Source of the DNA: Phyllobates terribilis
Taxonomy: Eukaryota
Assembly: GCF_046119375.1 (NCBI RefSeq)
Contig: NW_027362765.1
Coordinates: 257,114,001-257,178,000 of the forward strand
Direction of reading: 5' to 3'
Length of the DNA: 64,000 nt
Shown: positions 38,451 to 63,682 of the stretch, piece by piece
How the letters are laid out: every line of letters starts with the position of its first letter
Numbering within the stretch: the first letter of the stretch is position 1
Made by a program: the position numbers and the translations under genes
Notes under the pieces: generated by a model
What the model was told of the DNA's origin: nothing
The model's database searches: none
What the model saw: the letters and a program-made list of their open reading frames with translations, nothing else

Positions 38451-40717
38451 TCTAACAGTGATTGGCAGCAGCGCAGCAAATCAGTGTTAAGTTTTGTTTG
38501 TGGCTTCTCCCCCGCGCTGACAGCAGAGCTCAGGTAATGAGCCATGCTGTGCTGAGTAACAGTGCTCCTCCTCCACTATGTCACAGGCTGACAGTAAGAA
38601 GCACAGGGAGATGGATGACTGCCTACTACTGTCACACACAGTGTAGGAAAGACAAAGTGTGACACGAAGGGATGAGGGGAAGGGAGTCCAGACACTAGGG
38701 AATGGGGGAAATGGAGACCTCCTAGGCTGATCTGCAATTACCCTGTCTCCCCTACCGTCCCTATATTGGTTCTTAACCAATTGCCGCACAGGAACCTATC
38801 CCTGTATTTCCCTAGCGCTTGGCCCTGGATAGGGAAGGGGGGATGAGGGCTAGTCGATCCCCACTGACAACTAAAGACAGCAAAGGGACACAGATACGGG
38901 GGAAGTAGCTTAGCTTGAGGCGACTTCAGAGAGATGGCACACTCGTCCTCTTAGCACTAGAGAGGAAGTAAGAACTGCACTTGCTCCAACCCTTTGACGC
39001 GCCCAGGGGAATGGGGACGACTCGGCGCCTGGACCTTGTTGTTGCCTGACCTCGGGGGATGTCGCGGTGGTCGGCTCCTGGGCCCGTACCCTGGGGTCAC
39101 TCTTAAAAAGAAGGGGGAAGTTATATGGGATAGGGGAATGTTCGTGACGCCACCTGTGGTGTCTGGTGAGGATCACCAGCGCTGCGACAGTCCTCTGAGG
39201 CCGGTCTTCGGGCAGCTTAGTTGATGCGGCTCCCCACAGGTGGAGCGGGGCCTCAGGGCAGCGTAAGTGTAGGGATGCAGGACAGAGGGGACCCAGTCGG
39301 GACAGAGGAAGAATAGGCACACTCACAACAGTTCACTTCAGTACCTTTGCTGGTGGTGTTTCTGGCACGGTCCAGGGTACTTCAGGGTGAAGGGTACATA
39401 TCAGGACTCTCCCCAGTGAGCGGGTGTGGGGCCTCCTGGTTCTTGCCTTTCCTTGATAAGTTTCTGACCTGCCTGGAGCTAGGCCTAACTTGGTCTCTGT
39501 CTTGCACCTGCTGACCTGGTGGTAGGGCCTTCTGTTGGCGATCACACTCCCTGGTCTCTTGTGCCTCCGTGATTCCTGACCCTGGTATAACAGTCAGCTT
39601 TTGGTGTTCCTGGAACATATAGTTCGCCAGGGGTTCCGGTTATTTCTGCTGGATGTAAGGAATCCCTGCAGACGCGGACCCGGTGTCTGGTAAATGGTTT
39701 TGGGGTGAGCTGGTTAAGCTCCTCTGCCCCCTATGTTGCTTGCTTACTCCACTCGCCTTTGGCCACGCTCGGGGCCCTCACTAGCCTTCACACAGACAGT
39801 AGGCCTCGCTACTCTTCACCGCTATTTTGGCGTCGGCACGCCCTAGGCTCACTAACTCGAGCTCTCTGAGTCTGGACTGACCTGACAACCTCTCTGGCTG
39901 CAGCAGACTTCACACAGACTTCACTCTCTGTGGACTCCAGACTGTGGACTCCAGACTGTAGACTCCAAACTGAACTGCCTAGCTCCACCTTCCCTTTTTA
40001 TATCCCTAAGGGGCTCCCTCTGCTGGTTTGAGGTGGAAGGTGGAGGTGTGTGAATGCTATGAGGGCCTCTTGTGGAGGAATCCGTCCATGCAACCCTCTG
40101 GGATCTGTGGCACCAATGCGCAGCAGGGCGCCACATTCCCCCCTAGCTAAGCTCAGTACTCCCGGACTGAAGTAATTTTTATAACAGATGACAACAATAA
40201 CTCTTCACTTTACGGGAGGCACTTTGCTTGAACGTTACATATAAAACATTAGAGATAATAAATAGATATGTACAATACAATAAGCAACCTCAGAATTCAA
40301 GTCTCTTCCGGTGAGGTCCCCTAACAGGGTGTCCATCTCACAGGTTAAAGTACAAGGTAGCTTGAGGGACCTGTCCAAAGCAAACCCTCAACGTAGGCCC
40401 TGGGGTGGCTGCAGGGCATGGCGATCCTGAGCTGGACCTCCACTTCTGCCACGCCAGACAGGTTTTTGTTCTGAGGTCACCTAAAGGGGCACTCCAGGGA
40501 GTGCAATTATTTACCGCAAATAGTTTTTGGGCTGCACACAGTCCTCAGCCACAAAGTTCTTTATGTACCCTTACGGGTAACTAGAGATAACAAGGGAAGT
40601 GTCCATATCACTTAAATTGTCCATTATAAGGAAAAACACAAGTTAAGGAATTCATACATGAAAATACACAATATAATACCCCAAGGGCAACTATTTACAC
40701 TGTCAGAGTTTCCTTCT

Positions 40718-43700
40718 CTATTCTCTGTATCTGCCAGGGGTCTGACCTCGTGTGCTACGTGTCGACCTACGTGGTACGGGAGTGCGGATGGTATCTGTGT
40801 CTGCACCATCTGCTACCCTGTCACTTCTACGTGTGGGTAGATTGTAAAACTGCCTTAACCTCTCTATGGGACTGGCAAGTGTACCATTGGCTAGGCCTTC
40901 TTGCTCTGCTCCAACCGGGGATCCTTCTTCCGGGGATTCTTCTTGAGGCTCTTCTGAAGCACTTACAGGTTCTACTTGCTGTGGAGGGTCTTCTGGCTGT
41001 TGAAAGAAGTGGATCACAGGTATTATTACTGCTCCTCCTAGTTGAGGCCAATCTGCCGGGAAATCTCCTAAGTCAGTATGGAGTGCTGCTTCTTTAGGCT
41101 CCTCCGGTACGGTCAGAGGCACTTCTTCTTGGGGCTTTAGCAGGTCTGGACACAACTTCAGATGGTCTCTAGATACCGTTGCAGTCGTTATTTCTCCGTC
41201 TTTGCTAATCAAACAGGTCTTCTTGTTATCAAATCTTGAATTTAACACAGTGTAGGGTTCTCTCTCCCACTGGTCATCAAGTTTGTGGTTTCTCCTTTTC
41301 CTCTTTAACACCACTTCTCCTGGTGTGAAGGGTTCTGCTGGCGCACTTTTAATGTAGTGGGCTTCCTGCTTGTCCCTTACCCGAGTGAGACTGTCTTCGA
41401 CACAGGCCTGTACTCTTCTGTACTGCTCCTGTCTGGTCGCGTCCCAGTCCTCAGTGGACATATCTGCTTCTGGTTCTACTACACCCAGCTCCAGGTCCAT
41501 GGGCAACTTTCTGGATCTTGCTCGCATGAGATATGCTGGAGTACAATTGATGGAACTCACAGGTATGTGGTTGTACAGATCTACCAGGTCAGGTAGTAGG
41601 TCTGGCCACTGATTTCTCTCCTCTAGTGGTAAGGTCTTCAGCAGGTTGATGACAATGTTATTCATCTTTTCACAGAGACCGTTGGTTTGGGGGTGGTACA
41701 GTGTAGTCCGGATCTTTTTACACCCGTACAGATGGCAGAACTCCTTGAACAGTTCGGCTTCAAAGGCTGGGCCTTGATCCGTCAGCACCTGCTCCGGGTA
41801 TCCATGGGGCCTGCAGAAGTATGCCTAGAACGTCTTCACCGCAGTTTCTGCCGTCAGATCCTTGACGGGGGCGATCACCAGGAACCGGGAGTAGTGATCC
41901 ACCATGGTCAGGGCATAGGAATATCCTGACCTGCTGGGTGACAGCTTGACATGATCCAGGGCCACGATCTCCAAGGGACGAGTCATCTTGATGGGTTGCA
42001 GGGGTACCTTCTGGCTGCTGTAGTGTTTTCTTCTGAGGCTACAGGGTCCACAATTCCGGCACCACCTCTCAATGGAACTGCGCATTTCTACTCATAAAAC
42101 CAACACTTCAGCAGGGTTTCTAGCTTCTTCCAACCAAAGTGCCCCGCCTGATCGTGGTAGGCTTCCAACACCATCTGGATGACTGTCTTGGACACCACTA
42201 TCTGCCATACCATCTCATGGGTTTTGGGGTTGACTTACCTCCGGCACAGCTTCTCTCTATAGATGAACAGCCGGGCTCTTCTCATTCCACAGCTGCTTGG
42301 CTTGTAGAGACGCGTCCTTCTCCAGGGAGGAACCTTCCTGGGTTATCAGCTCTTTGATACGGCTGACAACCGGGTCGCTGTCCTGGGTCTCCTTCCAGCT
42401 GTGGTGAGGCAGGGGGTTTAACGTCTTTCTGCGATGCCTCCTGGAGGCTCGTTGCTCATGGACCACTCCATTCCGATGAAAGGCAGGTAGTTCAATCTCC
42501 TCCAGGTCATCCACTTCTTCCTCAGTGTCCGACTGGTGAGGCATCCTGGACAGGGCATCGGCGTTGGCGTTCTTGCGGCCCACCCGGTACTTAATAATGA
42601 ATTGGTAGTTTGACAGCCGAGCCATCCATAGTTGCTCCATGGCTCCTAGCTTGGCTTTTCCAGATGAGTCAAGGGGTTATCATCAGTGAAGGCAGTGAAC
42701 TTACTGGAGTCTAGGTAGTGCTTGAACCGCTCGGTGATGGCCCAGACCAGGGTCAGGAACTCCAACTTGAAGCTGCTATAGTTCTCTGGGTTCCTCTCGG
42801 TCGGGCAGAGCTTCCTGCTTGCATAGGCGATCACCTTCTCTCGGCCATTCTGCTTCTGACTTAACACAGCCCCTAATCCCTCGTTGCTGGCATCAGTGTA
42901 CAGCAGGAATGGTTAGCTGTAGTCAGGGTAGGCTAGGATCTCTTCGCCGGTCAGGATCTCCTTCATCGCCTCAAAGGATTCAGCTTGCTCCTTATCCCAC
43001 TGGAACGGGGGGTTTCTGCCTCTCCCGGACTGTCCTACCAGGAGATCTTGCAAAGGCGCCACTTTCTTGTTATAGTCATTCACAAACCTCCGGTAATACC
43101 CGACTAGTCCCAGGAACTGACGTACCTCCTTGAGGCTCTTCGGCTCCGGCCATTTCTGGATGGCAGTGACCTTTTCCGGGTCTGGTGCTACTCCCTCTGG
43201 ACTAACGATGTGCCCCAGGTACTGTACCTTTCGCTTGAGCAGGTGGCACTTTGAGGGCTTCAGCTTCATCCCATACCAGTACAGCGACTCAAATACCTCT
43301 GCCAGGTGCTTCAAATGGTCCTCGTACGTTTTGGAGTACACATTCACGTCATCCAGGTATAGTAGTACAGTCTTGAAGTTGCGGTGTCCCAGGCAGCACT
43401 CCATCAATCTCTGGAACATTCCGGGGGCGTTGCAGAGTCCAAACGGCATACTATTGAAATTGCAGAGTCCCATCGGGGTGGTGAAGGCCGTCTTCTCCTG
43501 ATCCTCCTCAGCAACAGCTACTTGCCAGTACCCACTAGTGAGGTCAAGGGTGGAGAAGTAATTTGCAGACTTCAAGGCAGCCAGGGATTCCTCTATACGT
43601 GGTAAAGGGTATGCATCTTTATGTGTAATGTGATTTACTTGTCTGTAATCTACACACATTCTCATGCTTCCGTCCTTTTTCCTGACTAGAACTAGGGGAG

Positions 43701-44859
43701 CTGCCCAGGGACTACAACTATCCCTCACTACCCCTGCCTTCTTCATGTCATGCAACATCTCTTTCGCCTTCTGGTAGTGTGCTGGTGGTATAGGCCTGTA
43801 ACGTTCTTTGATGGGTGGATGGTCGCCTGTGGAGATATGGTGTTGAACCCCCTTAATCCTCCCAAAGTCAAGTGGGTGCTTACTGAATACCTGCACGTAT
43901 TCCTGAACCACCCGGTGTACACCCTGCTTCTGATGGGCAGGAGTGGTGTCTGTCTTAACATGAAGCTGTTGACACCAATCCTCCACCTGGGTTGCCGGGT
44001 CGTTATCCTCTACTTCGTCTGGTGAGGTTAAGGACTCCACCGTGTGTATGGAGTTGTTATTTACTGTGTACAGCTTGGCAACAGTGGCATAGCGTGGTAA
44101 TCTAACCTCGTCCTCCCCATAGTTTAGGAGGCGTACGGGCACCCTCCCATTGCGTACATCTACTACCCCTCTGGCAGTCAGGAGTGTAGGTCTATGTTCC
44201 GAGTTAAGGGGCTCTACTACCGTCTGGTAGCTCCATCCTTTGAGACCTATTGCTGCTCTACACCAAATCAGCATTTCACTCATCGGGGGAATCACAATGG
44301 GTACCGGGTCTGTCACCCGCACATTACCAATTTCACCGCCTGTTAGCTTTACCTGTTGCTGGTACATACATAAGGGCTCGGATCTCTTTCTGGAGCGCCC
44401 TTCTCTGCCCTGATCTGGCAGTGTCAGCTATCTGTTGGAGCAAGAACTCCACTTCTCCCAAACAGTTACTAACAATATTTGTGCCAAGTACCATATACAA
44501 GTCTGTATCATCAGGATTAGTCTCTGCTACAATTAGTCCCTGGTCCTTCAGTTCCACTCTTCCCACCTTTACTGCCACATCCTTAACCCTGACTAGGTTA
44601 AGGGGGAGGCGTTTGAGGCATACACGGAAAGATTTGGATCTGGTGGGTGAAGTTAGTCTAAGGACCAGAACCTTTTGTAGAGGACATCAGGCATAATGGT
44701 TACCTGAGATCCTGTGTCCAGCAGAGCAGGTGTCGCGATGCCGTCCAGCACGATGGACAGGAAAGGTCTTCCTCCCACGAACCTGCGGTACCAGTTTGAT
44801 GGGCCTGAGGGGTCTACTCCTGGGTATCGGCCCTCGGCCCCAGGGTTTGTTCGTTTAAA
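40718..44859 (-). pseudogene. pol: Gypsy Pol (PR, RT, RNase H, integrase), disrupted
   Basis: Contains LLDTGSQ, YLDD, YTDAS...IAYASR, GHFG...C..C, LDHV, TDQG and NGLCEKMN. It is entered by a -1 frame at the slippery heptamer TTTAAAC (44853-44859). There is an in-frame stop at ~44654 and several frameshifts. Confidence 0.95.
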
Positions 44860-45752
44860 GGACAGCTCCGGATGGCGTGACCTGTCTTGTGGCAGCGGTG
44901 GCAGACAGGGTCCTTCGGCGGGCGGCTTTGGTCACTGGTCCTCCCAGGGGGTGGCGTTGTCCTCCTTCTCCTTCTCATCCAGGGGACATCCTCAGGGCTG
45001 TCGGCTAGCAGGATCCTCCCTTCCTCCTCGGGCTCTGTCCGGTGCTGCAGGGCACTCAGTACAGTGGTCAGGGTTTTGCTCAACTGACGCACTTCCGAGC
45101 GCAGGCTGTCCAGCTCACTAGGGAACGTTGCTTGCACCTTGGCTTCAGCAGCCACCGGGGAAAAGGTGGACGCTGCGGGCACTGGGGTGGCCCCACCCTG
45201 GTAAAATTGGATAGCAGTTGTTTCCAGGGGCTGCAGTCCTTTTATAGCCATGTCCTTAAGGGTGTCAAAGGTGGCATCTGGGTGATCCAGGGACCACCAA
45301 TGCACAGTCCTGCTCTTCTCTTGAGACCTCAGTCCCCGGATAAACTGTTCCTTCAGCATTCTATTTTCATTATCCATGCTGGTTGGACTAACCTGTTTCA
45401 GAGCTCGCAGGGCCCCTTGTAAATGCCAGGCATAGTCCCGAACACTGTCCTCTGGTTGCTGAGAGCAGTTGTAGAACCTCATCCGGAGGTCTGTCTCAGT
45501 ACGATTCTCAAAGACAGTCTGTAACTTTTTAAAGATTGCGGACACTGACTCCTGGCCTGCGGCCGACCAGGTCTCTACTTCTCGCTCCGCAGCACCAGTC
45601 AATTGTCCTAATACAACAGCGGCTCTTTGCTTGCCTGTCATAGAGTACATGTCCAGTATACCGCATATTTTCCTTTTGAATCCAGACAGGGTATCTGGTT
45701 TGCCGCTGTACTGGGGGATCCACTTCGCTCCAGGGATGTACGATAGGGCCAT
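44814..45752 (-). CDS. gag: Gypsy Gag (PNMA-like capsid plus CCHC zinc knuckle)
   Basis: 312-aa ORF with C-terminal CHRCHKTGHAIRSC (CX2CX4HX4C). Confidence 0.9.
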   Translation of the reverse strand: MALSYIPGAKWIPQYSGKPDTLSGFKRKICGILDMYSMTGKQRAAVVLGQLTGAAEREVETWSAAGQESVSAIFKKLQTVFENRTETDLRMRFYNCSQQPEDSVRDYAWHLQGALRALKQVSPTSMDNENRMLKEQFIRGLRSQEKSRTVHWWSLDHPDATFDTLKDMAIKGLQPLETTAIQFYQGGATPVPAASTFSPVAAEAKVQATFPSELDSLRSEVRQLSKTLTTVLSALQHRTEPEEEGRILLADSPEDVPWMRRRRRTTPPPGRTSDQSRPPKDPVCHRCHKTGHAIRSCPLNEQTLGPRADTQE

Positions 45753-46236
45753 GGGTATGACAGGGGTTACAAGCCCTGCTGGTGGAGCGGCTGTTTCGGC
45801 CTGCTCGGCGCCGAGCCGGGTTGAACATCAGGGTCGTTAACCGGTATTCCGGCGTTGTGCTGTTCTTCGGACATTCTGGCGCCCCCCTAACGAACCGTGG
45901 CCTACCTTCTCTTCTTTACTTCCGGTAGGCCGTAGCTCCGCAGGTGACGGTCTTCCTTCCGGACCTTGCGTCGCTTGCGTCCTATGTCAGAGCGTTCACC
46001 GGGGCTCCTTCCAGGACCTGGCGCTTCCTGGTTTGATGTCAAGGTGTGGGGCGTGTTCGGGGCTTCACGCGAATCAGCAGCTACACCTCTCAGTTTCCCG
46101 CGGTTACACCCTTCTTCCCGCTCGGCGGCACAACAATGGCGGCGATCTTCGCCACAGCTATATACACAGTTCTGATTAAAGGCGCACAGTACCCGGTGGC
46201 AACAGGCACAACACTCCGTCATTGCAGCGGGCACGG

Positions 46237-46255
46237 AATCCTGTTCGTGACGCCA
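46237..46255 (-). promoter_or_regulatory. Gypsy primer-binding site, tRNA-Ser (CGA-type)
   Basis: TGGCGTCACGAACAGGATT is complementary to ...AATCCTGTTCGTGACG-CCA, the vertebrate tRNA-Ser(CGA) 3' end as I recall it. Confidence 0.85.
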
Positions 46256-47799
46256 GGAAGAGATGACGCGCCCAGGGGAATAGGGACGACTCGGCGCCCG
46301 GACCTTGTTGTTGCCTGACCTCGGGGGATGTCGCTGTGGTCGGCTCCCGGGCCTGTACCCTGGGGTCACTCTTAAAAAGAAGATGGAAGTTATATGGGAT
46401 AGGGGAATGTTCGTGACGCCACCTGTGGTGTCTGGTGAGGATCACCAGCGCTGCGACAGTCCTCTGAGGCCGGTCTTCTGGCAGCTTAGTTGATGCTGCT
46501 CCCCACAGGTGGAGCGGGGCCTCAGGGCAGCGTAATTGTAGGGATGCAGGACAGAGGGGACCCAGTCGGGACAGAGGAAGAATAGGCACACTCACAACAG
46601 TTCACTTCAGTACCTTTACTGGTGGTGTTTCTGGCACGGTCCAGGGTACTTCAGGGTGAAGGGTGCATATTAGGACTCTCCCCAGTGAGCGGGTGTGGGA
46701 CCTCCTGTTTCTTGCCTTTCCTTGATAAGTTTCTGACATGCCTGGAGCTAGGCCTAACTTGGTCTCTGTCTTGCACCTGCTTACCTGGTGGTAGGGCCTT
46801 CTGTTGGAGATCACACTCCCTGGTCTCTTGGGCCTCCGTGATTCCTGACCCTGGTATAACAGTCAGCTTTTGGTGTGCCTGGGACATATAGTTCGCCAGG
46901 GGTTCCGGTTATTTCTGCTGGATGTAAGGAATCCCTGCAGACGCGGACCCGGTGTCCGGGAAATGGTTTTGGGGTGAGCTGGTTAAGCTCCTCTGCCCCC
47001 TATGTTGCTTGCTTACTCCACTTGCCTTCGGCCACGCTCGGGGCCCTCACTAGCCTTCACACTGGCAGTAGGCCTCACTACTCTTCACCGCTATTTTGGC
47101 GTCGGCACGCCCTAGGCTCACTAACTCGAGCCCTCTGAGTCTGGACTGACCTGATAACCTCTCTGGCTGCAGCAGACTTCACACAAACTTCACTCACTGT
47201 GGACTCCAGACTGTGGACTCCAGACTGTAGACTCCAGACTGAACTGCCTAGCTCTACCTTCCCTTTTTATATCCCTAACGGGCTCCCTCTGCTGGTCTGA
47301 GGTGGAAGGTGGAGGTGTGTGAATGCTATGAGGGCCTCTTGTGGAGGAATCCATCCATGCACCCCTCTGGGATCTGTGGCACCAATGCGCAGCAGGGCGC
47401 CACACCTTCACAAGGTCATAAGGGATCATGTGAATATCACCGGCACCTCCCTCTAGCAACAGTCAGTATTTAAACACCCAGCCTGGGTGTCAATTAGCCA
47501 GAGGCAGGTAGTCGCTGGGTCCTAGAGTGAGACAGCTAAGAAGGTGCCTGTAATTCCAAACAAAGAGATCTTCGGCAACCAACTGCAGGGCGACTGTCTG
47601 TCACTTCTGACACACCCGTGACAGCTACATCACTCACCAAAGGTTAGATATATGTAGCTGAGCTTGATTATCACCAATAGTGAGCCCTTGCCAACACAAA
47701 CAGTGGGTATCATAGGCGGCTTTACTCACTGGTGATAAAGGGTGAGTGGGCTCAGTCACTAAGGGAGGATTTCCCTCATTTTTTTGTTTCACCCCTGAC

Positions 47800-48410
47800 T
47801 GATCCTCCCCTGTATCACCCCTTATTGAGCCTCCTTTGTATCACCCCTGACTGACTGAGCCTCCCCTGTATCACCCCTGACTGACTGAGCCTCCCCTGTA
47901 TCACCCCTGACTGACTGAGCCTCCCCTTTATCACCCTTGACTGAGCTCCCCTGTATCACCCGTGACTAAGCCTCCCCTGTATCACGCCTGACTGACTGAC
48001 CATCCCCTGTATCACCCCTGACTGAGCCTCCCCTGTATCACCCCTTGCTGAGCCCACCAAGTACCACCCCTGACTGATAAAATGTCCCCATTTTGGTATA
48101 ATATCCCCATCCAGGGCCCATGCTATAATCATGTCCACTTCCTGGTATAATGTCCGCTATCCTGGTTTAATGTTACCCATCCTGGTATATTATCCCAATT
48201 CTGGTATATTGTCCCCATCCTAATATAATGTCCCCAGCCTGGTATGTTATCCCTCATTTTGACATAATGTCCTCCATCCTGATATAATGTCACATCTTGA
48301 TATAATGTCCGCCATCCTGATATAATGTCCGCCATCCTGGTATAATGTCCCCCATCCTGGTATAATGTCCTCCATCCTGGTATAATGTCTGCCATTCTGG
48401 TTTAATGTTT
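47800..48410. repeat. Two adjacent minisatellites (~30 bp CCTCCCCTGTATCACCCCTGACTGACTGAG; ~20 bp TATAATGTCC.CCATCCTGG), probably the interior of a MITE
   Basis: Directly visible at 47800-48050 and 48090-48410. Confidence 0.8.
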
Positions 48411-49618
48411 CCCCAGCTGGGAGCTGACTTCTGTGGCCCGCCAAGGTCCACTCACGACGTCACTGCCATGTGCAACCCATCATTGGCAAGCTGACATATG
48501 CTGCCAGCCTCTGATTGGCCGGCAGAGTATATTGCAGTGCAGGGAGCCGGCGGGTCTCTGCGTCACAATACATTTCAAAAGAATGTGCATCAGAGGATGT
48601 ACATCCAGGTGAAATTGGTGTCGGTGGAACACGCTCAAGCATGGGTCTGGTTCCGGTTGCACCCTCTATGACCGTGATCATTACGCCCCTGCTTGTTTTG
48701 TATGTTTTATTATAACAGTAACAGTAACAGTATTGCAGTATATAGTGGAGATAATGATCTCATAAGAATCCAGCTTAATGCTGGACTTCACAGGAGTATC
48801 AAGATGGGGGCTCACAGCTGAATGGTAACCATACAGGCACATGCCCGCTGTATGTTGCGTGTGAAGTGGGCTCCACTTCTGAGCCAACTCCACTCATGCA
48901 GTTCCTGCTGTGGACGTTCTGGTACTGTATGTTCATCTGTGCCAAGGGATTAATATTTTGAATTGATTTTATGCATATGCATGTGGAGAAGAGTGCCCTT
49001 ATCCTGGCACTGGCGGTCTTAAAAAAGGCACGGAACAAATGCATTTATATTAAAACTATTTTTACATGCATGAAAAGTTGCAATTTGTACAAAATTATAT
49101 AACTATGCAACATTTGACACACTGGACGCCAGCTCTTTTTTTAACATCGAGAAGTGTGCTACCATGCTTACAATGTTGTGTTAAATAATTTGCACCAAAT
49201 TTATCATTAGGGGTAAAATTTGCTAAATATGTGGAGTTGAAGTGAGTACACTTTGGCTCAAATTTTGCCATTTTTGATAAATGTGAACCATTGTGTTTTT
49301 ATGTTACACCACAATATTAGCACATTTTATCTCAGGAATGATTTTTTCTGGTGGGCCCAAGTCACACCAGTCCGATGCTGTATACTGCTATACTAATATT
49401 AATAATAACAATGTACATATTCTACCTACTAAAAAGATCACATAATTAACAATTAGATGTGTGAAAGGGGCCTAATACTGAGCAATCTAGTTTGTTTCTA
49501 GTATTCCTGTGTCTGGGATCCCCTGCAAAATAGGGCAAAAGGTCCATTGCCGTTTTCCTAAAAACGACCCTGCTTATTGGACACTGAGATGTATCAATGG
49601 CTGTTTCTGAGTATGTAA

Positions 49619-50057: not shown

Positions 50058-52915
50058 TACATGACTTTTCTTGATCTGATTTGGGCTGCATTGTTGCATT
50101 GAAGTCCGTATAAAGTCTTATTTTTCATGAATATTGTAAAGAGCAGCATAACGTATGAGGTTTCAGAAAATAGATTGCCTCTCATTAAATGTAATGGCAG
50201 CATTATCATCTTATAGATGCTATAACAGGCCCTTATTAGAACTCAGTAGGACAGACTGCAAATGGTTCTGTCTTTTTCAGCATAGCTTTCATTTGTGCTC
50301 TACATTTTCCAATTACCTTCTACTGTTTTTAGTGGTATCAAAGCACATTCCCTTTCATTAATTCTCTGGTCTTTTAATTGCTTTAGGGATAATTATGAAA
50401 AATGTCATAACGTGTTTTGCACACAAAGCCAGAAGCTTACTGTACACCTTATCTGTCTGTGCGGCAATGCCTCAGGAGGAAGACACAATGAATTATGTAG
50501 TGTAGATTTGAAAGTACTAATTAATCAGAAAGCTAGACCCCAGGAAGAGAGGAAGGAACAAGCAAAACTGTGGAATGGGCATCCTGCCTCCTTACTCCAA
50601 TGTGGCAGGTCATAAAAACTAATCCTTGCATTACTCAAAACATGCAAAAAAGACAAGATCTAGAGATATGATACTCTTTCATAACAGCACAAAAGTGCCC
50701 AAAAAAATAACTAACACCATTTATTATGTACTCTCACAGTAAACACACGAGTGAGGAATTGGAATTACATATAAAATGTAAAACATGGCAGATTATTTAC
50801 AAATTCCTAAGGCCAATTTCTTATAGTTATGTCCATACTGAAGAATTCCCTTGTGGGCTATTTTCTTCATACTGCCAAGAGAGAAAATATGACATTTACA
50901 AGACTAGAACCTCCCATTTTAGACTATTAGTTTCAGTAGATCTCCCGCATTAAACATAAGTATTTCCCATACATCATCACTACACAAGTGCACACTGAGA
51001 ATTAATATACTTCCAACTTTACTGTACCCTCTGAAATATATAAGCATTGTGCTGATCTATACCGTGTACGGTAGGTACCCTGTTTATGGTTGTCAACTGC
51101 CCAGCCACTCCTCTCCTCTCCTATCCCTTTGGTCCTTTCCCTTTCCTTTTCAGTCTCTTTCCTTTCCCTTTCTGTCATGTCCCATGATTTGGAAGTCATA
51201 CAGACAGTATTGTATTATCATTGTGACGCGCCCCCTGGGACATATTCCTTTTTGAGGGGAATACCCGGCACCGGATCAGATGGGGGGTTGTAGTCTCCGA
51301 GCGGCTGTGACCCGGCCCCGTGCCCAGGGCGTCAAGCTCAGTGTTATGTGGCAGTCCTACAGATGTTATTAAGAGTTCTTTTGTGTCGACTACGCCACCC
51401 GTTGTGATGCGGTCACTGTGGCCGCCGCTGCAGCAGGGTCCGCTGAGGCTGATGGTGGATGCGCAGCTTGGTGGGATAACCCCCAACGGGAGGGGTATAG
51501 CCTCAGAGGGGACAGGCGCAGAGGATGGGGGTTGTGGTGGTGCGGTGCAGCCGGCAGTGAAGACAGAGTCGGGTTGTGCAGTTAAGGGTGTTTACTTACT
51601 GCAGATGTTGTACTGGTCACTCCAGCTGCTAGTGACCACCCGAGCCGTGCTGCGTCCACCAGGTCCTGGATCCAGCCAACCCCCAAACAAGTCCGGAGCG
51701 TGGCCCTGAGCTCTCCCTCTGTCCTTTCTTCAGCCGTCCCCACCAGTGATTCACCTAGGTCCAGCTCCCTCGGGCCTTCTGTTGGGACACCCTTGGCCCT
51801 GGGTTCCCTGACCCTTCATGTGGTGTGCCTTCGGGGTGAATATGGTGGGTGACCGTGGCAAACGCTGCCCACGATCTCCGGTCTCTGGCTAGGGATTGTT
51901 TTTGCCCCCACCAGCTTGGGTTCCGGTACCCTGATGCTGACTCCTCACCCGGTGCTCTAATTTGGGTTCTTGGGTCCCTTCAGTCTTCCCCCTCTGGGTC
52001 TTTCTCTGCTCCACTCTCTCTCTCTCCAGGGCTGCTGTTTCCTTCTCTCTCCTCTCCAACTCACTTTCTGCGTCTGAACTTGTCCTCTGCAGCTGACTGA
52101 CCCTGATCTAAGTTGGTGCCCTCCTTATATATCCCTCTATGTGTGAGCTCAGGTGACCAGCACCCAATGAGCTCCTATCACTACCCAGACTGCTCCCCCT
52201 ATCTGCCCCTACACTACATGGGATGTACCACCCCCCTCCCACTCCAGCCAGGAACAGGCTCGGTTGTACCTGCACATTTCTAAGTGGGAGTACCGTCGGC
52301 CTGCTCCTCTGAAATGGGATGTATGTAGTGCATGCAGTCTATCTGAGCTCAGTTCCACACTCCATCCTTACCCGGGAGTGGAATATCACACCTCTGGGTT
52401 GAGGTGCAATACCCCTGTAGCAGCCGAACCCTCAGGGTGCTACATTCCCCCCTGGTAAACCACAGCACGTCCTCGGGCTGTAAAGACATAAAACACCAAA
52501 ACATACAATTTTTTTTTTTTTTTTTCATATAAACATATAAAACATATAAAACATTATATATATAAAACTTTTTTATATAAACATTCTCGTAGACTTCTCT
52601 TGTCTCTGGTTCCTCCTCCGGACACTGTGCAACGTGTGTCCGGGAAAAGTGCGACAGTCTCTTAGAAAAACTGGTTTTCTATAAAACCGGTAGGGGGCGC
52701 TTTAGGAAGCGCAACTATATACAGGGAGAAGTTGGAAGTTGGCCGCTCTCAGTCCTCGGCCAGGTAGAGGGAAGGGAATGGCTGCTCACAGTCCTCAGCC
52801 TGTAGGATAAAGGGGTTAACGGGTAAACAGTTCACTGGTCCCAACGGGGACTATTTTAGCTCTAACGGTTCACTGTGCCCCGACGGGCAACTATATACAG
52901 TCTCTACTCCCGTCC

Positions 52916-54742
52916 TCAACGACGGCTCCCTCCTGCTTTTTCTTGATATGGTGTTGCTTCAGACCCGTCCGGGTCCTCTGGCTCCTCCTCTCCGTACCGC
53001 AACTCCTCCTCCGTCAAGCGGTGTACGTGGAGGGCGTAAGGTCCTTTGGCACACTTGTGCCGGGTGAAAGTGACTTCGTCTCCGACGTAGAGGTCACGGC
53101 CTTTGTGACCTTCCGGCAGGTGGGACTCGACGTCTCTGCGAGTCACAAAAACGTCACCGCGGTTGTTACGGTCCCGAATAAAGCCCCACCCATGCTGCGG
53201 GTTGAACTTTATCACTGTCCCGATGGTGCGGGGACAATGCGCTGCACGGGGGTTCCTCCTAGTCCGGCTCTTCTGCTCCGCGCTCCGGATTTGGGCCTGT
53301 TGTTCTCTGACCCGCCTCTCCTCCCGTTCTCTCTTAAACTCTGCTAGCTGCTGACGACAACACTCAGTACGCTCAGCGGCGACTGCCCGAGTTTCTCCGG
53401 TGAACCCCATCAAATCTTCTCCCGTGGGGTCCCACACGAATTGGGCTTCTTCTAAAGGAGGCGAGACCCGAGTCACGGGCTTCGGAGCCGGGATCAGGGG
53501 TTCACACAAGGGCCCTAGTCTTTGTTGCCGCTCCAGCTCATGGTATCCTTCGGGCCAGATGAAGGGTCGCCCGTCCGGCCATGTGAGCTGGCTGAAGAGG
53601 TCCTCCCCCAGGTGTGGCACCCTTGGTATTGCGGGCGCGGGCGCGGTGGTGGTGGCGCCCGGGTTGCCCAGGCCTTGCGGCCAGGCCTGGGGCACCTGGA
53701 AGGTGAAGGGCACCGTTAGGACGGCGGCGCCCTGGGCTACCTGGCCTTGCGGCCAGGCCGGAGGCTCCGCGGAGGTAGGGGGCGCTGTTGGTGGTGCGGC
53801 GCCCGGGGGTACTAGGCCTTGCGACCAGGCTGGTGGTAATTCCTGCTTTGTCACGCTCCGGGTCGAGGCGCGTGACGTCACAGGGGTCGCTGCGGTGGCT
53901 TCCGGTCGGGGCCTAGTCCATGGCGGTGACATGGCGGCTACGGGCACAGCAGGGGGACTTTCGGGCTCTGCGACGGGGAGCTGGGGCAGGTGGGCGGTTT
54001 CACGGCTTGGGGTATAGACGTCCCCTTTACCTGCCTCCATGCGTTCGGCTCCCTCCTCGGCGCCGTCTCCGGCCTTGGGTCCTCCCGCGCCATCCTCAGA
54101 GGCGGTCTGCTTCCTCTTCCAGGGTAGCGTGCTCCGTTGACTGGTCTCTGCTTGCTGGGCCATCTCCCGGCTCCACTCCGCCAGTATCTCACGCTGTACC
54201 CGGGCCATCCTCCTTGCGAGGCCCTCCAGGGCAGTTTGTGCACACTCCCGGTCTCGGGGGAGCTGCGCTAAGATCTCCGCTAGACCTAGCGGGGTTGTGG
54301 ACTCTAGCAGGCTCCTGACCATCGGGTCGGTGCTGCTCTGCTCTTCTTCCGGCAGGCTCCTGGCCAGCGGGCCGGTGCTGCTCTGCCCTCCTTCCTCGGT
54401 CTCTAGCAGACTCCTGGCCAGCGGGCCGGTGCTGTTCTGCTTTCTCTCCATCTCCGGGTGAGCTCCTCCGCTACTCCTCGTTAGACCTCTTGCCTCCGGG
54501 TGCGCTCGCTCCAGACTCCTCCAGGCGACACCCATCTTTGTTCTCTCCTTTCGTCTCCTCCCACTTCGAGGGCGGTCCCGGGGCAACTCGGTGACTGTCA
54601 GCTCCAGGGGTAGTTCTTTCACGCTGACAGACACCTCCAACATCACAGTCTCTGTTGGTGGGGGCGGTTTCCACTTTTGGCGCCATTTTCTGTCCTGGCC
54701 CACGATGGGAGGTGGCCTCCTGCCCTCCTTTGGCACGCCCAT
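52916..54742 (-). CDS. ~608-aa Pro-rich/coiled-coil protein with a C-terminal Y-box-like cold-shock domain (CSD at ~53015-53224) and an acidic tail
   Basis: Uninterrupted ORF. GTVIKFNPQHGWGFIRDRNNRGDVFVTRRDV...GDEVTF...KGPYALHV aligns to the CSD pattern (GTVKWFN..GYGFI...DVFVH...G..V.F...KG..A..V). The first ATG after the PBS is at 54742, and the frame is also open further upstream. Confidence 0.88.
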   Translation of the reverse strand: MGVPKEGRRPPPIVGQDRKWRQKWKPPPPTETVMLEVSVSVKELPLELTVTELPRDRPRSGRRRKERTKMGVAWRSLERAHPEARGLTRSSGGAHPEMERKQNSTGPLARSLLETEEGGQSSTGPLARSLPEEEQSSTDPMVRSLLESTTPLGLAEILAQLPRDRECAQTALEGLARRMARVQREILAEWSREMAQQAETSQRSTLPWKRKQTASEDGAGGPKAGDGAEEGAERMEAGKGDVYTPSRETAHLPQLPVAEPESPPAVPVAAMSPPWTRPRPEATAATPVTSRASTRSVTKQELPPAWSQGLVPPGAAPPTAPPTSAEPPAWPQGQVAQGAAVLTVPFTFQVPQAWPQGLGNPGATTTAPAPAIPRVPHLGEDLFSQLTWPDGRPFIWPEGYHELERQQRLGPLCEPLIPAPKPVTRVSPPLEEAQFVWDPTGEDLMGFTGETRAVAAERTECCRQQLAEFKREREERRVREQQAQIRSAEQKSRTRRNPRAAHCPRTIGTVIKFNPQHGWGFIRDRNNRGDVFVTRRDVESHLPEGHKGRDLYVGDEVTFTRHKCAKGPYALHVHRLTEEELRYGEEEPEDPDGSEATPYQEKAGGSRR

Positions 54743-54978
54743 AATGGCGTCCGCTGCTCTTCCAAGGCGGGAAATCTGCGGTTTTGGCGGGAAGCGTCGC
54801 CCAGTGGCGGGAAACTCTGCAGATGGCGGGAACAAGCTGGAAATGGCGGACAATCGGCGGGAAACGACTGGTGATGGAGTCCGATGGCGTGGACCCTCCG
54901 GAACCGGCGGGAGACTTCTTTCTGAGGTAAACTTGCACTTTTCTTCAGGCACGCAGTACCCGGGTGTTGCGGGCACGT

Positions 54979-54997
54979 AATCCTGCCGACTACGCCA
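54979..54997 (-). promoter_or_regulatory. Primer-binding site, tRNA-Ser (AGA/TGA-type)
   Basis: TGGCGTAGTCGGCAGGATT is complementary to ...AATCCTGCCGACTACG-CCA. An identical PBS occurs at 58288-58306. Confidence 0.88.
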
Positions 54998-57014
54998 AAG
55001 TTGACGCGCCCCCTGGGACATATTCCTTTTTGAGGGGAATACCCGGCACCGGATCAGATGGGGGGTTGTAGTCTCCGAGCGGCTGTGACCCGGCCCCGTG
55101 CCCAGGGCGTCAAGCTCAGTGTTATGTGGCAGTCCTACAGATGTTATTAAGAGTTCTTTTGTGTCGACTACGCCACCCGTTGTGATGCGGTCACTGTGGC
55201 CGCCGCTGCAGCAGGGTCCGCTGAGGCTGATGGTGGATGCGCAGCTTGGTGGGATAACCCCCAACGGGAGGGGTATAGCCTCAGAGGGGACAGGCGCAGA
55301 GGATGGGGGTTGTGGTGGTGCGGTGCAGCCGGCAGTGAAGACAGAGTCGGGTTGTGCAGTTAAGGGTGTTTACTTACTGCAGATGTTGTACTGGTCACTC
55401 CAGCTGCTAGTGACCACCCGAGCCGTGCTGCGTCCACCAGGTCCTGGATCCAGCCAACCCCCAAACAAGTCCGGAGCGTGGCCCTGAGCTCTCCCTCTGT
55501 CCTTTCTTCAGCCGTCCCCACCAGTGATTCACCTAGGTCCAGCTCCCTCGGGCCTTCTGTTGGGACACCCTTGGCCCTGGGTTCCCTGACCCTTCATGTG
55601 GTGTGCCTTCGGGGTGAATATGGTGGGTGACCGTGGCAAACGCTGCCCACGATCTCCGGTCTCTGGCTAGGGATTGTTTTTGCCCCCACCAGCTTGGGTT
55701 CCGGTACCCTGATGCTGACTCCTCACCCGGTGCTCTAATTTGGGTTCTTGGGTCCCTTCAGTCTTCCCCCTCTGGGTCTTTCTCTGCTCCACTCTCTCTC
55801 TCTCCAGGGCTGCTGTTTCCTTCTCTCTCCTCTCCAACTCACTTTCTGCGTCTGAACTTGTCCTCTGCAGCTGACTGACCCTGATCTAAGTTGGTGCCCT
55901 CCTTATATATCCCTCTATGTGTGAGCTCAGGTGACCAGCACCCAATGAGCTCCTATCACTACCCAGACTGCTCCCCCTATCTGCCCCTACACTACATGGG
56001 ATGTACCACCCCCCTCCCACTCCAGCCAGGAACAGGCTCGGTTGTACCTGCACATTTCTAAGTGGGAGTACCGTCGGCCTGCTCCTCTGAAATGGGATGT
56101 ATGTAGTGCATGCAGTCTATCTGAGCTCAGTTCCACACTCCATCCTTACCCGGGAGTGGAATATCACACCTCTGGGTTGAGGTGCAATACCCCTGTAGCA
56201 GCCGAACCCTCAGGGTGCTACAATTGTGTTTATATTGTGCCGTTTGTTGCTATGCAATAAGGTTTGCGCTCTTTAGAATTTGTCCTTCCTCTCTCCTTGT
56301 CTCTCTCTGATGTCAGTAACACCTCCCTTCTTCCTCATTCACTGTATATCAGCCATCTTAGAAGCTCATGTGTTTCTGAAAAGTTTTTTTTACCTACTGT
56401 AACTGTGCATAACTACAAGAATTCAGCTGGAAAATAAACCTTCTTCTGGAATCTTTATATATGCTTCCTGCAGTCGAGTTCAAGCTATCTGAGGACATCA
56501 CTCTGTGTGAGTAACGGTTGATAGAGGCAGCCTAGAACTGGTGTCTCAAGCTCTCTACACTTGCAGCTTAGTTATTGAGTAAGAATACTTTTCTTTTTCC
56601 CTTCCCTTCGCTTTCGTTTCCTGCAGACCTTCTGAGCCCTGTACCTTCTTGGTAGGCGATATTATCCTCTAACTTGTCTTCTTCAGAGAATGGACATGCA
56701 ATCTGAATATGCTATCCTTGAACTGTTGACTTTTCTGCCTCGTCCCCAGATTATCTTCTTTCTTTAGATGAGAGAATCTATTTTGCACGGAATGAGTTTG
56801 GTACAAATCTTTCTTCACTCATCAGTTTGTAAATACAACTAATTTGGGATTAGTTTTCTGCTGATCGCCCAAAATGGCCACTGCCAGGTTAATAGGTAGC
56901 ATAAGACAGAGGAGAAGACTGGATAATATGTCAGAGAAGAAGGATGTATCACATGAACTCGGATGCGGCTGGGCAGGCTTCCCAATAATGCCTTGCAGTT
57001 ACTCCACACGATAG

Positions 57015-60000
57015 TGTAGCACCCCGAGGGCTCGGCTGCTACAGGGGTATTGCACCTCGAACCAGAGGTGTGGTATTCCACTCCCGGGTAAGGATGGAGT
57101 GTGGACTAGAACTCAGTTAGCTGCATGCACCACACACACCCCATTTCCGAGGAACAGACCGACGGCACTCCCACTAGAAAGATGTGCAGGTACGACAGCT
57201 TCTGTTCCTGGCTGGAGTGGGGAGGGGGAGGAAAACCCAGTGGTGTAGGAGCAGATAGGGGCGGGTTTCTGGGCATAGGAAGGAGCCCATTGGTTGCTAA
57301 TCACCTGGGCTCGGATGTCAGAGGGAGTATAAAAGTTGGGCACCATCTTAGGAGTGAGTTCAGTTGAGTCAGACAGAAGAAGAGGGAGAAGAGGAGTGAC
57401 AGGGAGCAGCAGCCCTGTCTGGGTGCTGCCCCTGGAGGGAGCAAGAGTGAAGAAGAAAGGAACAAGAAGCAAGGAAAGAATGAAACATAAGAAAAGGCCC
57501 AGAGACATGAAGCAAGAAGGAACCCGAACACGCTAGGAGTCAGCGGGTGAAGGGTTGGCAGATCAGGGTACCGGATCCCAAACTGGTGGAGGCCACTTAT
57601 CCTCAGCCAGGAACCGGAGGATGTGGCCACGTCTTGGCGCGACCACTCACTACACTCACCACGAAGGCATGCCACATAGGGTCAGGGAGACCGGAGAAAG
57701 GTTTCGCCATCAGAAGGCCTGAGGAAGCTGGACATGGGTGGGTCCCTAGTGGGGACGGCCAGAGAAAGGAACGGGGAAAGGAGTTCAAGGTCACACTCTG
57801 GAACTGCCTGGGGGTTGGTCGAGCCCCGTACCTGGTGGACGCAGCACGACTCGGGTGGTCCTACTGTGCACGGACGACCTGGTAAAGAACTGTGAGTAAA
57901 GCTTTTGAAACTGCACTTCAAGCCTCCGTGTTTCGTCGTCGCACCTGCACCATCAGTACTGGGACACCCGCACCATCACTCCCATTGTCATTTCTTTCAT
58001 AGCTGCCCTGAGGCCATACCCCTCCCGTTGGGGGTTATACCATCCACGCTGCACATCCGTACCACCGGCCTCAGCGGACTGCCCTGCAGCGGCGGCTTCA
58101 TAGCCGCATTCAACGGGTGGCGTAGTCGGACACTAATACCATCAAATCAATAGCGCCACTTAGTTTGACCACCCTGGGCACGGACCGGGTCACCGCCACG
58201 AGGACTACTACCCCTATCTGATCCGGCTCCGGGTATTCCCCGCGTGCGCAACGCTACCCAAACATGGCCCAGGGGGCGCGTCAACTTTGGCGTAGTCGGC
58301 AGGATTACGTGCCCGCAACCACCGGGTACTGCGTGCCTGAAAAAAGAGACTTTTATACTTGCCTGTGGTGAAGTTTTCCGCCGTCCGGAGTCGTTTCCCG
58401 CCATCTGGAGCCGATTCCCGCCATCCGACGCCATCTTCTGCCTTCTTCCCGCCATCCGTGGAGTTTTCCCACCATTGGACGCCATCTTGAGGACGCCGCG
58501 CGGGAAGAAGAGGGGCGTGGACTCCGAAAGCCCGCGAGAACTGAAGCCCCGCCTCACGTCCGGACGTTGCGTAAGGTCCTGGAAGGAGCCCAGCAGACGC
58601 CGACGTCACAGGAGCGCGACGGAAGGTCCTCAACCCTGACGATCCACTGCGTAGCCGCGGCCTACGGAAGAGGATCATCACAAGGTAGGCCACGGTCCAC
58701 TAGGGGGGAGGAGGATGTCGGATACGGAGGAGAGCTTCACTACCGCAGCCACCATCCAGCACTGCGTCCATCCCGAGAGGCAGCAGAAGCGGATCGGAGG
58801 CCGAGGATGACGCCGCGGGGGAGGCCGCAACGACAAGTAAGGGGAACGCCGTTACTCCGGGCCCTGAGGCCGCGGACCTGCCCCTACCTCCCGCCGCGGA
58901 ACCCGAAGCTCTGGGTGCCGCACCGCCCGCCGTGCCTCCATCACCAGCAGTTAGCCCTCCAGCAGCATGCTCTGCAGCGGAGCCTCGCCCAGGACCGTGC
59001 TCCCCAACATCGGGCACGATCAGAAAGTCACCGGCCTGGTTGAAAGGCCGAGTGCCCGCGGGCGCTTCACCCCAGCCGGGGCCCCCAGTCGTACCACCAT
59101 TGGGGAAAGACCTGTATGAGCAGCACACCTGCCCGGAGGGGACACCATTCGTCTGGCCGCCTGAATACACCAACCCCCGCTCCAGGAAGAGTCACCCCGT
59201 AGGAGCAAGGGCCCCAGATGAACCGTTAATCCCAGCTCCGGAGCCGTGGACCTCTCTTCACCCCCGCTGGAAGACGCCAATTCGAAGGGGACCCCACTGG
59301 AGAAGACCTGATGGGGTTCACTCAGGAGACCCGGGCGGGCGCCGTCCGGCGCTATGGGACCTGCCGCCAACAACGGGCAACGGTTGAGCGGGAGCGGAGA
59401 GAGAGGAAAGTGAAGGAGAAGTGGCTCCACATTAAAAACGTGGAGCAGAAGACAAGGGCCCGCCAGGACCCCCCGTACAGCTCACGGTCCCCGAGTCACC
59501 GGGACTGTTGTTAAGTTTCATATGGCATGTGGCTGGGGCATCATTTAAAACCCGAAGACCATGAGCCAGGTGTTTGTAAACAGGAGCGACGTAGAGTCCC
59601 ACCTACCGGAGGGGCACAGTGGACGGGACCTGGTGCCTGGAGATACCGTCACCTATACCAGGCATAAGGGAGTGAAGGGGTGGTGCGCCCTTCATGTCCA
59701 CCGGGTCAAGGAGGAGGAGGAGTTATCGTACCAGGAGGAGAAGAAAGAGGGCCCGGACGGGTCTGAACCTGAGGAAGAGGAAGGAGCGTGTGGAGGATAC
59801 CGTAAATCGTAAACGGTAAAAGAGGAGATGTAAATAGTTACCCGATCGGGTATAAGGACTGTTGTGAGACTGTTTCCACAAAGAGTGTGGTCCCCGTTGG
59901 GACAGAAAGAGAACTGTTGCCTGTTTTGCCCTAATCCCTAACCTGACCGAGGACTGAGAGCGGTCATCCTTTCCCTCTACCTGGCTGAGGACTGACAGCG

Positions 60001-61580
60001 GCCAGATCCCAAGGAGTCAAGAATGTTGAAAATGTTTTATATGAAAAATGTCTAAATGTGAAAGTTTTACAATGCCTCTAAAAGTAACGATGCTGAAGTT
60101 TTATATATCGTGTTTTCTACAAAAGAGTTCCCGTGGCATTAGCAAAAGCGTTGATATCAGTAACGTTAAAGTGAAAAGAGTACCTCCCATAAAGGGATGA
60201 TTTGAAAGTTAATGTCTTATTTATGAGTGTACACTTTAAAATTTTTGTAAGTTTGTAATTGTTTTGCTCTGTTTCAGCCCGAGGACGTGCTGTGATTTAC
60301 CAGAGGGGAATGTAGCACCCCGAGGGCTCGGCTGCTACAGGGGTATTGCACCTCGAACCAGAGGTGTGGTATTCCACTCCCGGGTAAGGATGGAGTGTGG
60401 ACTAGAACTCAGTTAGCTGCATGCACCACACACACCCCATTTCCGAGGAACAGACCGACGGTACTCCCACTAGAAAGATGTGCAGGTACGACAGCTTCTG
60501 TTCCTGGCTGGAGTGGGGAGGGGGAGGAAAACCCAGTGGTGTAGGAGCAGATAGGGGCGGGTTTCTGGGCATAGGAAGGAGCCCATTGGTTGCTAATCAC
60601 CTGGGCTCGGATGTCAGAGGGAGTATAAAAGGTGGGCACCATCTTAGGAGTGAGTTCAGTTGAGTCAGACAGAAGAAGAGGGAGAAGAGGAGTGACAGGG
60701 AGCAGCAGCCCTGTCTGGGTGCTGCCCCTGGAGGGAGCAAGAGTGAAGAAGAAAGGAACAAGAAGCAAGGAAAGAATGAAACATAAGAAAAGGCCCAGAG
60801 ACATGAAGCAAGAAGGAACCCGAACACGCTAGGAGTCAGCGGGTGAAGGGTTGGCAGATCAGGGTACCGGATCCCAAACTGGTGGAGGCCACTTATCCTC
60901 AGCCAGGAACCGGAGGATGTGGCCACGTCTTGGCGCGACCACTCACTACACTCACCACGAAGGCATGCCACATAGGGTCAGGGAGACCGGAGAAAGGTTT
61001 CGCCACCAGAAGGCCCGAGGAAGCTGGACATGGGTGGGTCCCTAGTGGGGACGGCCAGAGAAAGGAACGGGGAAAGGAGTTCAAGGTCACACTCTGGAAC
61101 TGCCTGGGGGTTGGTTGAGCCCCGTACCTGGTGGACGCAGCATGGCTCGGGTCGTCATCACCTGCAGGACTGACGTTAATAACAACTGTGAGTAAAGCAT
61201 TGAAAACTGCAATCAGTCTCAGTGTTCCATCGCACCACCAGCACCATAGGTACCGGGACGCTCTTACTATCACTCCCTTCACCCGCACCAGCTGCCCTGA
61301 GGCTATACCTCTCCCGTTGGGGGTTATACCACCATAGCTGCACATATATACCATCGGCCTCAGCGGACTGATTTGCAGTGGCGGCCTTGCGACCGCAAAT
61401 CAACGGGTGGCGTAGTCGGACACTAATACCATCATACCAATAACTGCCACTTAGTTTGACCACCCTGGGCACGGACCGAGTCACCGCCACATGAAGACTA
61501 CTACCCCCATCGGATCCGGCTCCGGGTATTCCCCGCGCGCACGCGCGCCGTACTACAGCACTGGCCCAGGGGGTGAGTCA
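57015..61580 (+). mobile_element. Second subfamily of the CSD-carrying LTR element (4566 bp), TSD ATAG
   Basis: LTRs at 57015-58283 and 60311-61580, PBS at 58288-58306 and PPT at 60299-60310. ATAG occurs at 57011-57014 and 61581-61584. Confidence 0.95.
58600..59812 (+). pseudogene. Disrupted homolog of the CSD protein
   Basis: Conserved blocks KGNAVTPGPEAADLP, GKDLYEQHTCPEGTPFVWP, EPLIPAP, DLMGFTQETRA and GTVVKFHMACGWGII*NPKTMSQVFVNRSDVESHLPEGHSGRDL. Has frameshifts and a TAA at 59546. Confidence 0.88.
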
Positions 61581-63640: not shown

Positions 63641-63682
63641 GTTGCCATATCGTCATCTTTTTTTTTACTTTTGAAAAAAATC

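Follow-up and report, generated by a model that had tools for sequence, protein, structure and literature searches.

We analysed a 64,000-nucleotide (nt) stretch of the genome of the frog Phyllobates terribilis (contig NW_027362765.1, positions 257,114,001 to 257,178,000; hereafter the window), which contains four insertions of long terminal repeat (LTR) retrotransposons, each bounded by a 4-bp target-site duplication (TSD). In all seven of their LTRs, starting 143–174 nt before the LTR end, lies an 11–14 nt copy of the beginning of the element's own primer-binding site (PBS), here called Y. An earlier sequence-only reading had reported such copies in the Gypsy LTRs (the first 14 nt of the PBS) and in the LTRs of a cold-shock-domain family, and all seven lie exactly where it had placed them, the one at 29284-29295 with one mismatch. 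Y is abutted by a helix, P1, and followed by a stretch, X, complementary to the 5' end of the primer tRNA. The features, in window coordinates, are:

38995..47404, reverse strand: element A, a Ty3/Gypsy retrotransposon with LTRs at 46264-47404 and 38995-40135, TSD AAGG and a tRNA-Ser(CGA) primer
46238..46255, reverse strand: true PBS of A, complementary over 18 nt to tRNA-Ser(CGA), 8 nt past the LTR end
46408..46421, reverse strand: site Y of the A 5' LTR, 14 nt
39139..39152, reverse strand: site Y of the A 3' LTR
46422..46526, reverse strand: double-pseudoknot domain of the A 5' LTR, upstream of Y, predicted by covariation
46503-46509 with 46422-46428, reverse strand: helix P1 of the A 5' LTR, ending one base before Y
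39234-39240 with 39153-39159, reverse strand: helix P1 of the A 3' LTR
46330..46340 (5' LTR) and 39061-39071 (3' LTR), reverse strand: site X of A, matching tRNA nt 1-11, imperfect in the 5' LTR
51224..56222, reverse strand: element B, non-autonomous, with a cold-shock-domain open reading frame (ORF), LTRs at 55002-56222 and 51224-52444, TSD CAAT and a tRNA-Ser(AGA) primer
54980..54997, reverse strand: true PBS of B
55165..55175, reverse strand: site Y of the B 5' LTR, with P1 at 55262-55268 and 55176-55182 and X at 55068-55083
55369-55374, reverse strand: putative poly(A) signal of the B 5' LTR
51387..51397, reverse strand: site Y of the B 3' LTR, with P1 at 51484-51490 and 51398-51404 and X at 51290-51305
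57015..61580, forward strand: element C, a decayed, non-autonomous relative of B with LTRs at 57015-58283 and 60311-61580 and TSD ATAG
58288..58305, forward strand: true PBS of C
58118..58129, forward strand: site Y of the C 5' LTR, with P1 at 58024-58030 and 58111-58117 and X at about 58195-58208
57895-57900, forward strand: putative poly(A) signal of the C 5' LTR
61408..61419, forward strand: site Y of the C 3' LTR, with P1 at 61313-61319 and 61401-61407 and X at 61486-61501
28153..29426, forward strand: solo LTR D, TSD CAAG
29284..29295, forward strand: site Y of D, one mismatch, with P1 at 29192-29198 and 29277-29283 and X at 29360-29370

These insertions display the features of Ty3/Gypsy elements, namely TG..CA LTRs, 4-bp TSDs, a PBS and a purine tract before the 3' LTR. 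Element A, whose LTRs are 96.7% identical, is of the autonomous type and encodes, in the order gag, reverse transcriptase (RT), integrase, a PNMA-like gag with a zinc knuckle, an RT and an integrase fragment; B and C are without RT. The A RT has its nearest named relatives in Phyllobates (73%), Dendrobates (70%) and Bufo (67%), followed by fish. Its gag resembles PNMA (E-value 2.4e-5), which has been placed under Barthez (PMC3670739), and this PNMA-like gag gives a lead toward a possible place of element A in the Barthez lineage. The two LTRs of B are 100% identical over 1,221 nt (51224-52444, 55002-56222), so that its insertion is very recent. An ORF with a cold-shock domain stands in place of gag-pol in B (52916-54750), in C (58704-59387) and in loci L364, L365, L378, L382, L388, L389 and L395; such non-autonomous elements occur in at least two LTR groups, and a captured RNA chaperone of this kind might act on the structured leader.

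The 10.6-Gb genome contains 46,653 (AGA type) and 4,665 (CGA type) exact PBS 19-mers, and the same genome carries the tRNA-Ser(AGA) and tRNA-Ser(CGA) genes to which the two PBS types are complementary (loci L106 and L098). We took the first 30 genome loci of each type, chosen solely by an exact PBS, and called Y where at least 10 of 11 positions matched the own PBS at -250 to -60. A Y of the element's own type was found in 29 of 30 AGA and 24 of 30 CGA elements (53/60) and a Y of the other type in none of the 60, set against a probability of about 1e-4 for an exact 11-mer within 400 nt. Genome-wide, elements with discordant Y and PBS number 1+1, a count set against the exact PBS 19-mer totals; one is a recombinant of two families, and the other looks like a single mis-primed copy. 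The motif had been described as changing with the tRNA isotype: it does change with the primer, but both primers are serine tRNAs, of the AGA and CGA isoacceptors. In the same way, the Gypsy and cold-shock LTRs, which had been presented as distinct families, do differ in primer type, but they are not independent: their U5 (unique 5') regions align and the AGA elements include gag-bearing members.

Among subfamily representatives, which were picked for a recognisable Y and whose level of match is therefore inflated, the match of Y to the PBS reaches position 11 in 39–44 of 44 AGA and 16–18 of 18 CGA sequences and often continues to 12–14, with 0–1 representatives still matching by position 15 and almost none at 15–16. 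The 11-nt extent corresponds to NCCA plus the 7-nt 3' acceptor strand of the tRNA. Pairwise identity is 0.94–0.95 in Y, against 0.32–0.34 in the AT-rich linker directly after it. The claim that the surrounding U5 is divergent applies to this linker only, the 110 nt upstream of Y being a conserved, covarying structure. Y is confirmed as a real conserved feature, far above chance and richer than first described.

As for further primer types, 6,774 internal-site matches other than TGGCGT revealed no third one: the 30 inspected were point mutants of the AGA and CGA types, mostly representing one LTR carried inside another repeat. Most of loci L127-L149 are one solo LTR with a mutated Y, which was amplified as a passenger of another repeat and has the same flanks throughout. 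Other PBS types were also searched for, with 236 matches, and the 100 listed were all mutants of the AGA and CGA types. Separately, copies of the tRNA that read through beyond the 18-nt PBS are present in L092, L096, L097, L099-L103 and L105, several of which stop within the variable arm or close to the anticodon; to judge from their sequence, they are genomic fossils of RT stops on the primer and a footprint of serine tRNAs priming. The L096 read-through carries a TGA anticodon, so that tRNA-Ser(TGA) apparently primes as well.

In the LTR alignment, a conserved AGTAAA and, after it, a GU-rich tract are found upstream of Y, and on these motifs we assign Y to U5. RNA contigs from four runs span the LTR and carry no end or strand information, so that the R/U5 border rests on the motifs. 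The LTR/U5 alignment was made without L001, whose upstream part could not be aligned, and 19 of 185 loci without a callable Y were set aside.

The sequence-only reading overlooked a larger module around Y, which includes P1, X and a further box, Z. Its order is double pseudoknot, P1, Y, variable AT-rich linker, and terminal hairpin with X. Over some 110 nt upstream of Y, covariation predicts five helices with compensatory changes, two of which cross others and form the double pseudoknot; an Rfam search of the U5 module gave no meaningful match. P1, 7 bp or longer, terminates exactly on the base preceding the TGG of Y in 60 of 62 subfamily representatives and occurs in three compensatory versions, its pair 33:116 having the top covariation score, while no helix above 5 bp abuts the true PBS at the 32 true PBS considered. 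X is complementary to tRNA nt 1-11 or 1-12, occupies the terminal hairpin's apical loop in two of three group consensus folds, and switches together with Y in 58 of the 59 representatives that were scored (the other 3 of the 62 being unscored). It forms a contiguous complement of 11–12 bp in many CGA copies and in a third group, of AGA type, and is split by a bulge of 0–5 nt in the main AGA group, L370 and L146 looking like intermediates. Z, complementary to the D-loop, is found in 13 of 14 third-group representatives. Y, Z and X are so ordered that a single tRNA can pair with the whole set and keep its anticodon, variable and T arms folded (cofold of L395), and the cognate tRNA co-folds better in 59 of 62 representatives, much of this being due to Y alone. 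In CGA families, position 11 of Y is A (18/18) and the facing base of X is C; each pairs with one of the G7-U66 wobble partners of the tRNA, and the two mismatch one another.

Because the LTRs of AGA and CGA elements are homologous, with U5 regions that align, covariation between Y and the primer type has to be counted on a tree. The third group (9,247 LTRs) has an AGA-type Y in a CGA-like background. A tree of 62 subfamily representatives, built on the 600 nt upstream of Y, implies four changes, three of them forced by well-supported branches. The local-block tree (U5 with Y and X masked, without the truncated segments L372 and wA) implies two changes, and none of 200 bootstrap trees had one. 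The gag tree, which included three non-frog outgroups and left out gag matches under 200 aa, also implies two, a single CGA clade being rejected by the approximately unbiased (AU) test (p-AU 0.021). At least two primer switches are thus likely from these trees, and the additional changes probably reflect recombination.

Products of priming from Y are essentially absent. With one subfamily-limited context pattern, 67,246 LTRs retain the TGG of Y and 61 have lost it. Among 30 inspected copies with TGG loss, 29 are small deletions or duplications that continue into U5, and the remaining one is cut off with no TSD to test, so that no TSD-bounded short LTR ending at Y was confirmed among them. Natural copies from which Y is deleted include L187 and L189. 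A full 18-nt site at Y occurs in 3 genomic copies, against about 51,000 PBS: two are Y-to-PBS collapses and the third (L211) is an overwrite to exactly 18 nt. All three changes are confined to the 5' LTR, the 3' LTR running normally past Y, which fits rare template jumps or recombination; to judge from these copies, the same route could serve to update Y after a primer switch.

Outside frogs, a metagenome scan with the AGA PBS yielded 115 loci, many of them chance bacterial matches, and 23 representatives were judged LTR-like. Y is present in four of these families (L251 at -63, L260 at -37, L323 at -86, L343 at -55), which are known from metagenome sequence alone, whose LTRs cannot be aligned with each other, and whose three full gags are 36–44% identical mutually and 20–26% identical to frog gags. 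Here Y follows a hairpin ending in G, which in three families measures 7, 7 and 6 bp under a strict test (with background fractions of 0.012, 0.029 and 0.15) and in the fourth is seen only in an energy fold; the pattern had been noticed before testing. Viral contigs gave 0 and 1 pattern matches (L363) and no RT relatives. Genome contigs gave three mis-binned loci of eukaryote type (L398, L399, L400), and no Ser PBS was recognised in L399 or L400. L398 (730-885, 6790-6850) is a Gypsy-like element mis-binned in a bacterial metagenome-assembled genome, with four or five stacked units of LTR end plus PBS that differ in tRNA-Ser type, its 3' LTR including one old PBS; from this arrangement, it seems to record successive primer switches and a growing LTR. 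The suggestion that the motif reflects function or a recurrent mechanism is supported by the conservation of Y, by its tracking of the primer through at least two switches, by its recurrence in unalignable non-frog families and by the rare copying route described above.

From the observed complementarity, co-switching, helix position and missing priming products, we favour, at about even confidence, a reading in which Y would act as a non-priming dock that captures the primer tRNA-Ser and keeps the acceptor stem open until the tRNA is passed on to the PBS. With Gag or its nucleocapsid (NC) domain as chaperone, Y would take the 3' strand of the tRNA and X the freed 5' strand, with Z also taking the D-loop in one group, while the anticodon, variable and T arms would stay folded. 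Stacking of the CCA end on P1 would stabilise the short duplex and leave no single-stranded template for RT. We infer that the 18-bp PBS would then take over the tRNA 3' end. The purpose may be primer selection, packaging or the timing of initiation.

Several features have counterparts in known systems. Drosophila gypsy, also a Ty3/Gypsy element, has a second, non-priming 11-nt site for tRNA-Lys2 (Gabus et al. 2006, PMC1635307); it is situated close to the RNA 3' end and has the anticodon and T stems as its partners, whereas the frog Y lies in U5, beside a helix, and duplicates a PBS segment. In Ty1 and Ty3, the multipartite PBS is built from a number of boxes that each complement a different part of the primer tRNA (PMC5371799), and the frog module likewise has extra boxes for other parts, namely X for nt 1-12 and, in one group, Z for the D-loop. 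As far as the accessible part of that source goes, the Ty1/Ty3 boxes complete one priming site, with no duplicate for the acceptor end, whereas the frog 18-nt PBS is complete alone. X is the direct analogue of a contact in feline immunodeficiency virus (FIV), where 5' tRNA nucleotides pair with a U5 stem-loop (PMC3230847), and HIV-1 has extended primer contacts in its primer activation signal (PAS) and A-loop (PMC3185550); the accessible portions of both papers describe neither a second CCA-end site nor an abutting pseudoknot. Helenus TRIMs (miniature terminal-repeat retrotransposons) also have tRNA-related sequence in the LTR, which is a tRNA-like RNA polymerase III (Pol III) promoter unrelated to the primer (PMC10886601), whereas the frog boxes are short, antisense and track the primer. 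The tRNA-like Pol III sequence in a short LTR that marks TRIMp3/Helenus is not seen here: ARAGORN detected no tRNA in the window, and the LTRs measure 1.1–1.3 kb. By its sequence, the frog U5 design appears to be a form of multipartite primer binding with a predicted role; multipartite contacts are already known from Ty1, Ty3, gypsy and FIV. Our literature search, which lay mostly outside subscription journals and outside Repbase annotations, found no description of a duplicate acceptor-end site in U5.

A number of observations weigh against the dock reading. Y is mostly paired in single-sequence folds (median unpaired 0.21–0.35), with no consistent partner, the partners differing among subfamilies; P1 could be extended over the TGG of Y in 31 of 62 representatives, and Z is absent from all 18 CGA representatives. 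The other 19 of the 23 Ser-PBS metagenome representatives lack Y (best 8/11), so that Y is no general need of tRNA-Ser priming, and in the four families that have it, X either is weak or coincides in part with the LTR terminal repeat. The independent events are also few: the four changes on the upstream tree partly reflect recombination of U5 blocks, the AU test on the local block leaves a single CGA clade unrejected (p-AU 0.069), and X agrees with Y in 3 of 3 independent pairs (p 0.25) and the PBS with Y in 2 of 3.

The pairing of Y in single folds might instead reflect an intramolecular switch, in which Y stands in for the PBS and pairs with X or with other anti-PBS stretches of U5, so that the true PBS stays free and no tRNA ever binds Y. 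Each half of X can indeed pair with either Y or the PBS, and the consensus fold of the main AGA group has a weak hairpin between Y and the linker end. We nevertheless consider a switch rather improbable, since the halves of X are ordered as a complement of the tRNA 5' end and not of Y, which limits pairing with Y to 5–7 bp; moreover, position 11 of Y and X form an A-C mismatch in CGA families, no partner of Y is conserved across groups, and the ending of P1 at the CCA-binding TGG in five LTR families is left unexplained. The sequence evidence for the dock would serve equally for a separate, second tRNA that stays at Y and X and controls translation versus packaging or links two genomic RNAs. 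The module sits in the 5' leader, RNA ends are bridged by tRNA in both Ty3 and Drosophila gypsy, and there is a precedent for a dispensable RNA-bridging second site (PMC1635307). Such a regulator, however, need not share the primer's isoacceptor, yet Y follows the PBS with only 1+1 exceptions, and we deem a second tRNA a degree less probable again. A decoy or target for the 3' tRNA fragments that block LTR elements through the PBS is doubtful too, if not quite negligible: Y pairs with the CCA-side 11–14 nt of such fragments, repression can be seed-independent (PMC12853362), and Y is in every LTR copy (67,246 by the above pattern), but an 18-nt copy would make a better sponge than one whose match ends at 11–14 nt, Y lies downstream of the putative poly(A) signal, and X, Z and P1 are unaccounted for.

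Y could also be a relic without function, an old LTR end plus PBS that was absorbed into U5 and at times overwritten by RT jumps from Y to the tRNA or PBS. The overwrite of L211 to the full 18 nt in its 5' LTR only, the two Y-to-PBS collapses with normal 3' LTRs, the CCACAGG before Y, which resembles an old LTR end, and the stacked relics of L398 in another lineage all speak for such a history. Overwriting, though, is seen once in about 51,000 elements and yields 18 nt rather than 11–13; it could not change X, which nonetheless co-switches, and it explains neither the identity of 0.94–0.95 in Y beside 0.32–0.34 in the linker nor the compensatory changes in P1. We therefore give a functionless relic little credence, while the same route is likely to account for the origin and updating of Y, as opposed to its retention. 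The sequence-only reading had put forward an alternative priming site or a strand-transfer aid, and neither is borne out by the full-site and TGG-loss copies. The three copies with an 18-nt site at Y are the argument for priming; their 3' LTRs run past Y, unlike a priming product, the loss of TGG is seen in 61 copies against 67,246, and 29 of 30 inspected continue into downstream U5. Short cDNAs might still arise and fail to integrate, but we see only a very slight chance that Y primes or assists strand transfer.

We also tried and rejected a splice site at Y (there is no conserved AG before it), a hammerhead or hepatitis delta virus (HDV) ribozyme (the helix order of the module differs from that of those ribozymes), and a site for a DNA-binding protein (five of eleven Y bases switch with the primer).

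The dock reading has a bolder version, suggested by analogy and on the whole unlikely, in which the pseudoknot and Y would form a convergent, eukaryotic discriminator of the T-box kind, with CCA stacked on P1 and only uncharged tRNA-Ser admitted. In the T-box discriminator, UGGN lies directly against a helix with a terminal G-C pair, no base intervening, so that A76 of the tRNA can stack (PMC7583486); UGGN likewise adjoins a helix in 60 of 62 frog representatives and, by the strict test, in three of four metagenome families, and the terminal G-C pair is shared. The frog module differs in belonging to a eukaryotic retroelement and in invading the acceptor stem with 11–14 bp, versus 4 in the T-box. 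Stem I, specifier and terminator were not found in the U5 module, which has no Rfam match, and no clean codon-like column tracks the primer type outside Y and X. If true, this version would mean an RNA-only choice of primers with a free 3'-OH, possibly with replication or translation tied to serine charging, and the sensing of tRNA 3' ends outside bacteria would make the module a new riboswitch-like RNA.

Primer selection, opening and timing have been worked out for few LTR retroelements and usually need a protein. The frog family offers a U5 module of about 300 nt whose natural isoacceptor swaps are a built-in control of specificity, in a family that has more than 50,000 copies with a PBS within a single 10.6-Gb genome, and it recurs in distant relatives. 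The module also shows why primer switches are rare: PBS, Y and X change jointly, and a copy that looks mis-primed failed to multiply.

Subfamilies differ in the spacer that separates the PBS from the LTR-terminal CA, its length ranging from about 2 to 9 nt (46256-46263, 54998-55001, 58284-58287; loci L001-L060), the usual spacer being shorter, at 0–3 nt. Directly 3' of the PBS, a conserved hairpin with a CCGGGTA-like motif (58307-58331 and homologues) is found with both primer types, and the motif is present in U5 too. Elsewhere in the window, an ORF with a BED zinc finger (12733-13959) is probably a fragment of a hAT-type transposase, and tandem arrays with units of 431, 52, 148, 28–31 and 72 bp, together with a degenerate telomere-like hexamer tract, occupy positions 7017-8145, 9019-10335, 13956-15689, 20399-21831, 32815-33915 and 63682-63964.

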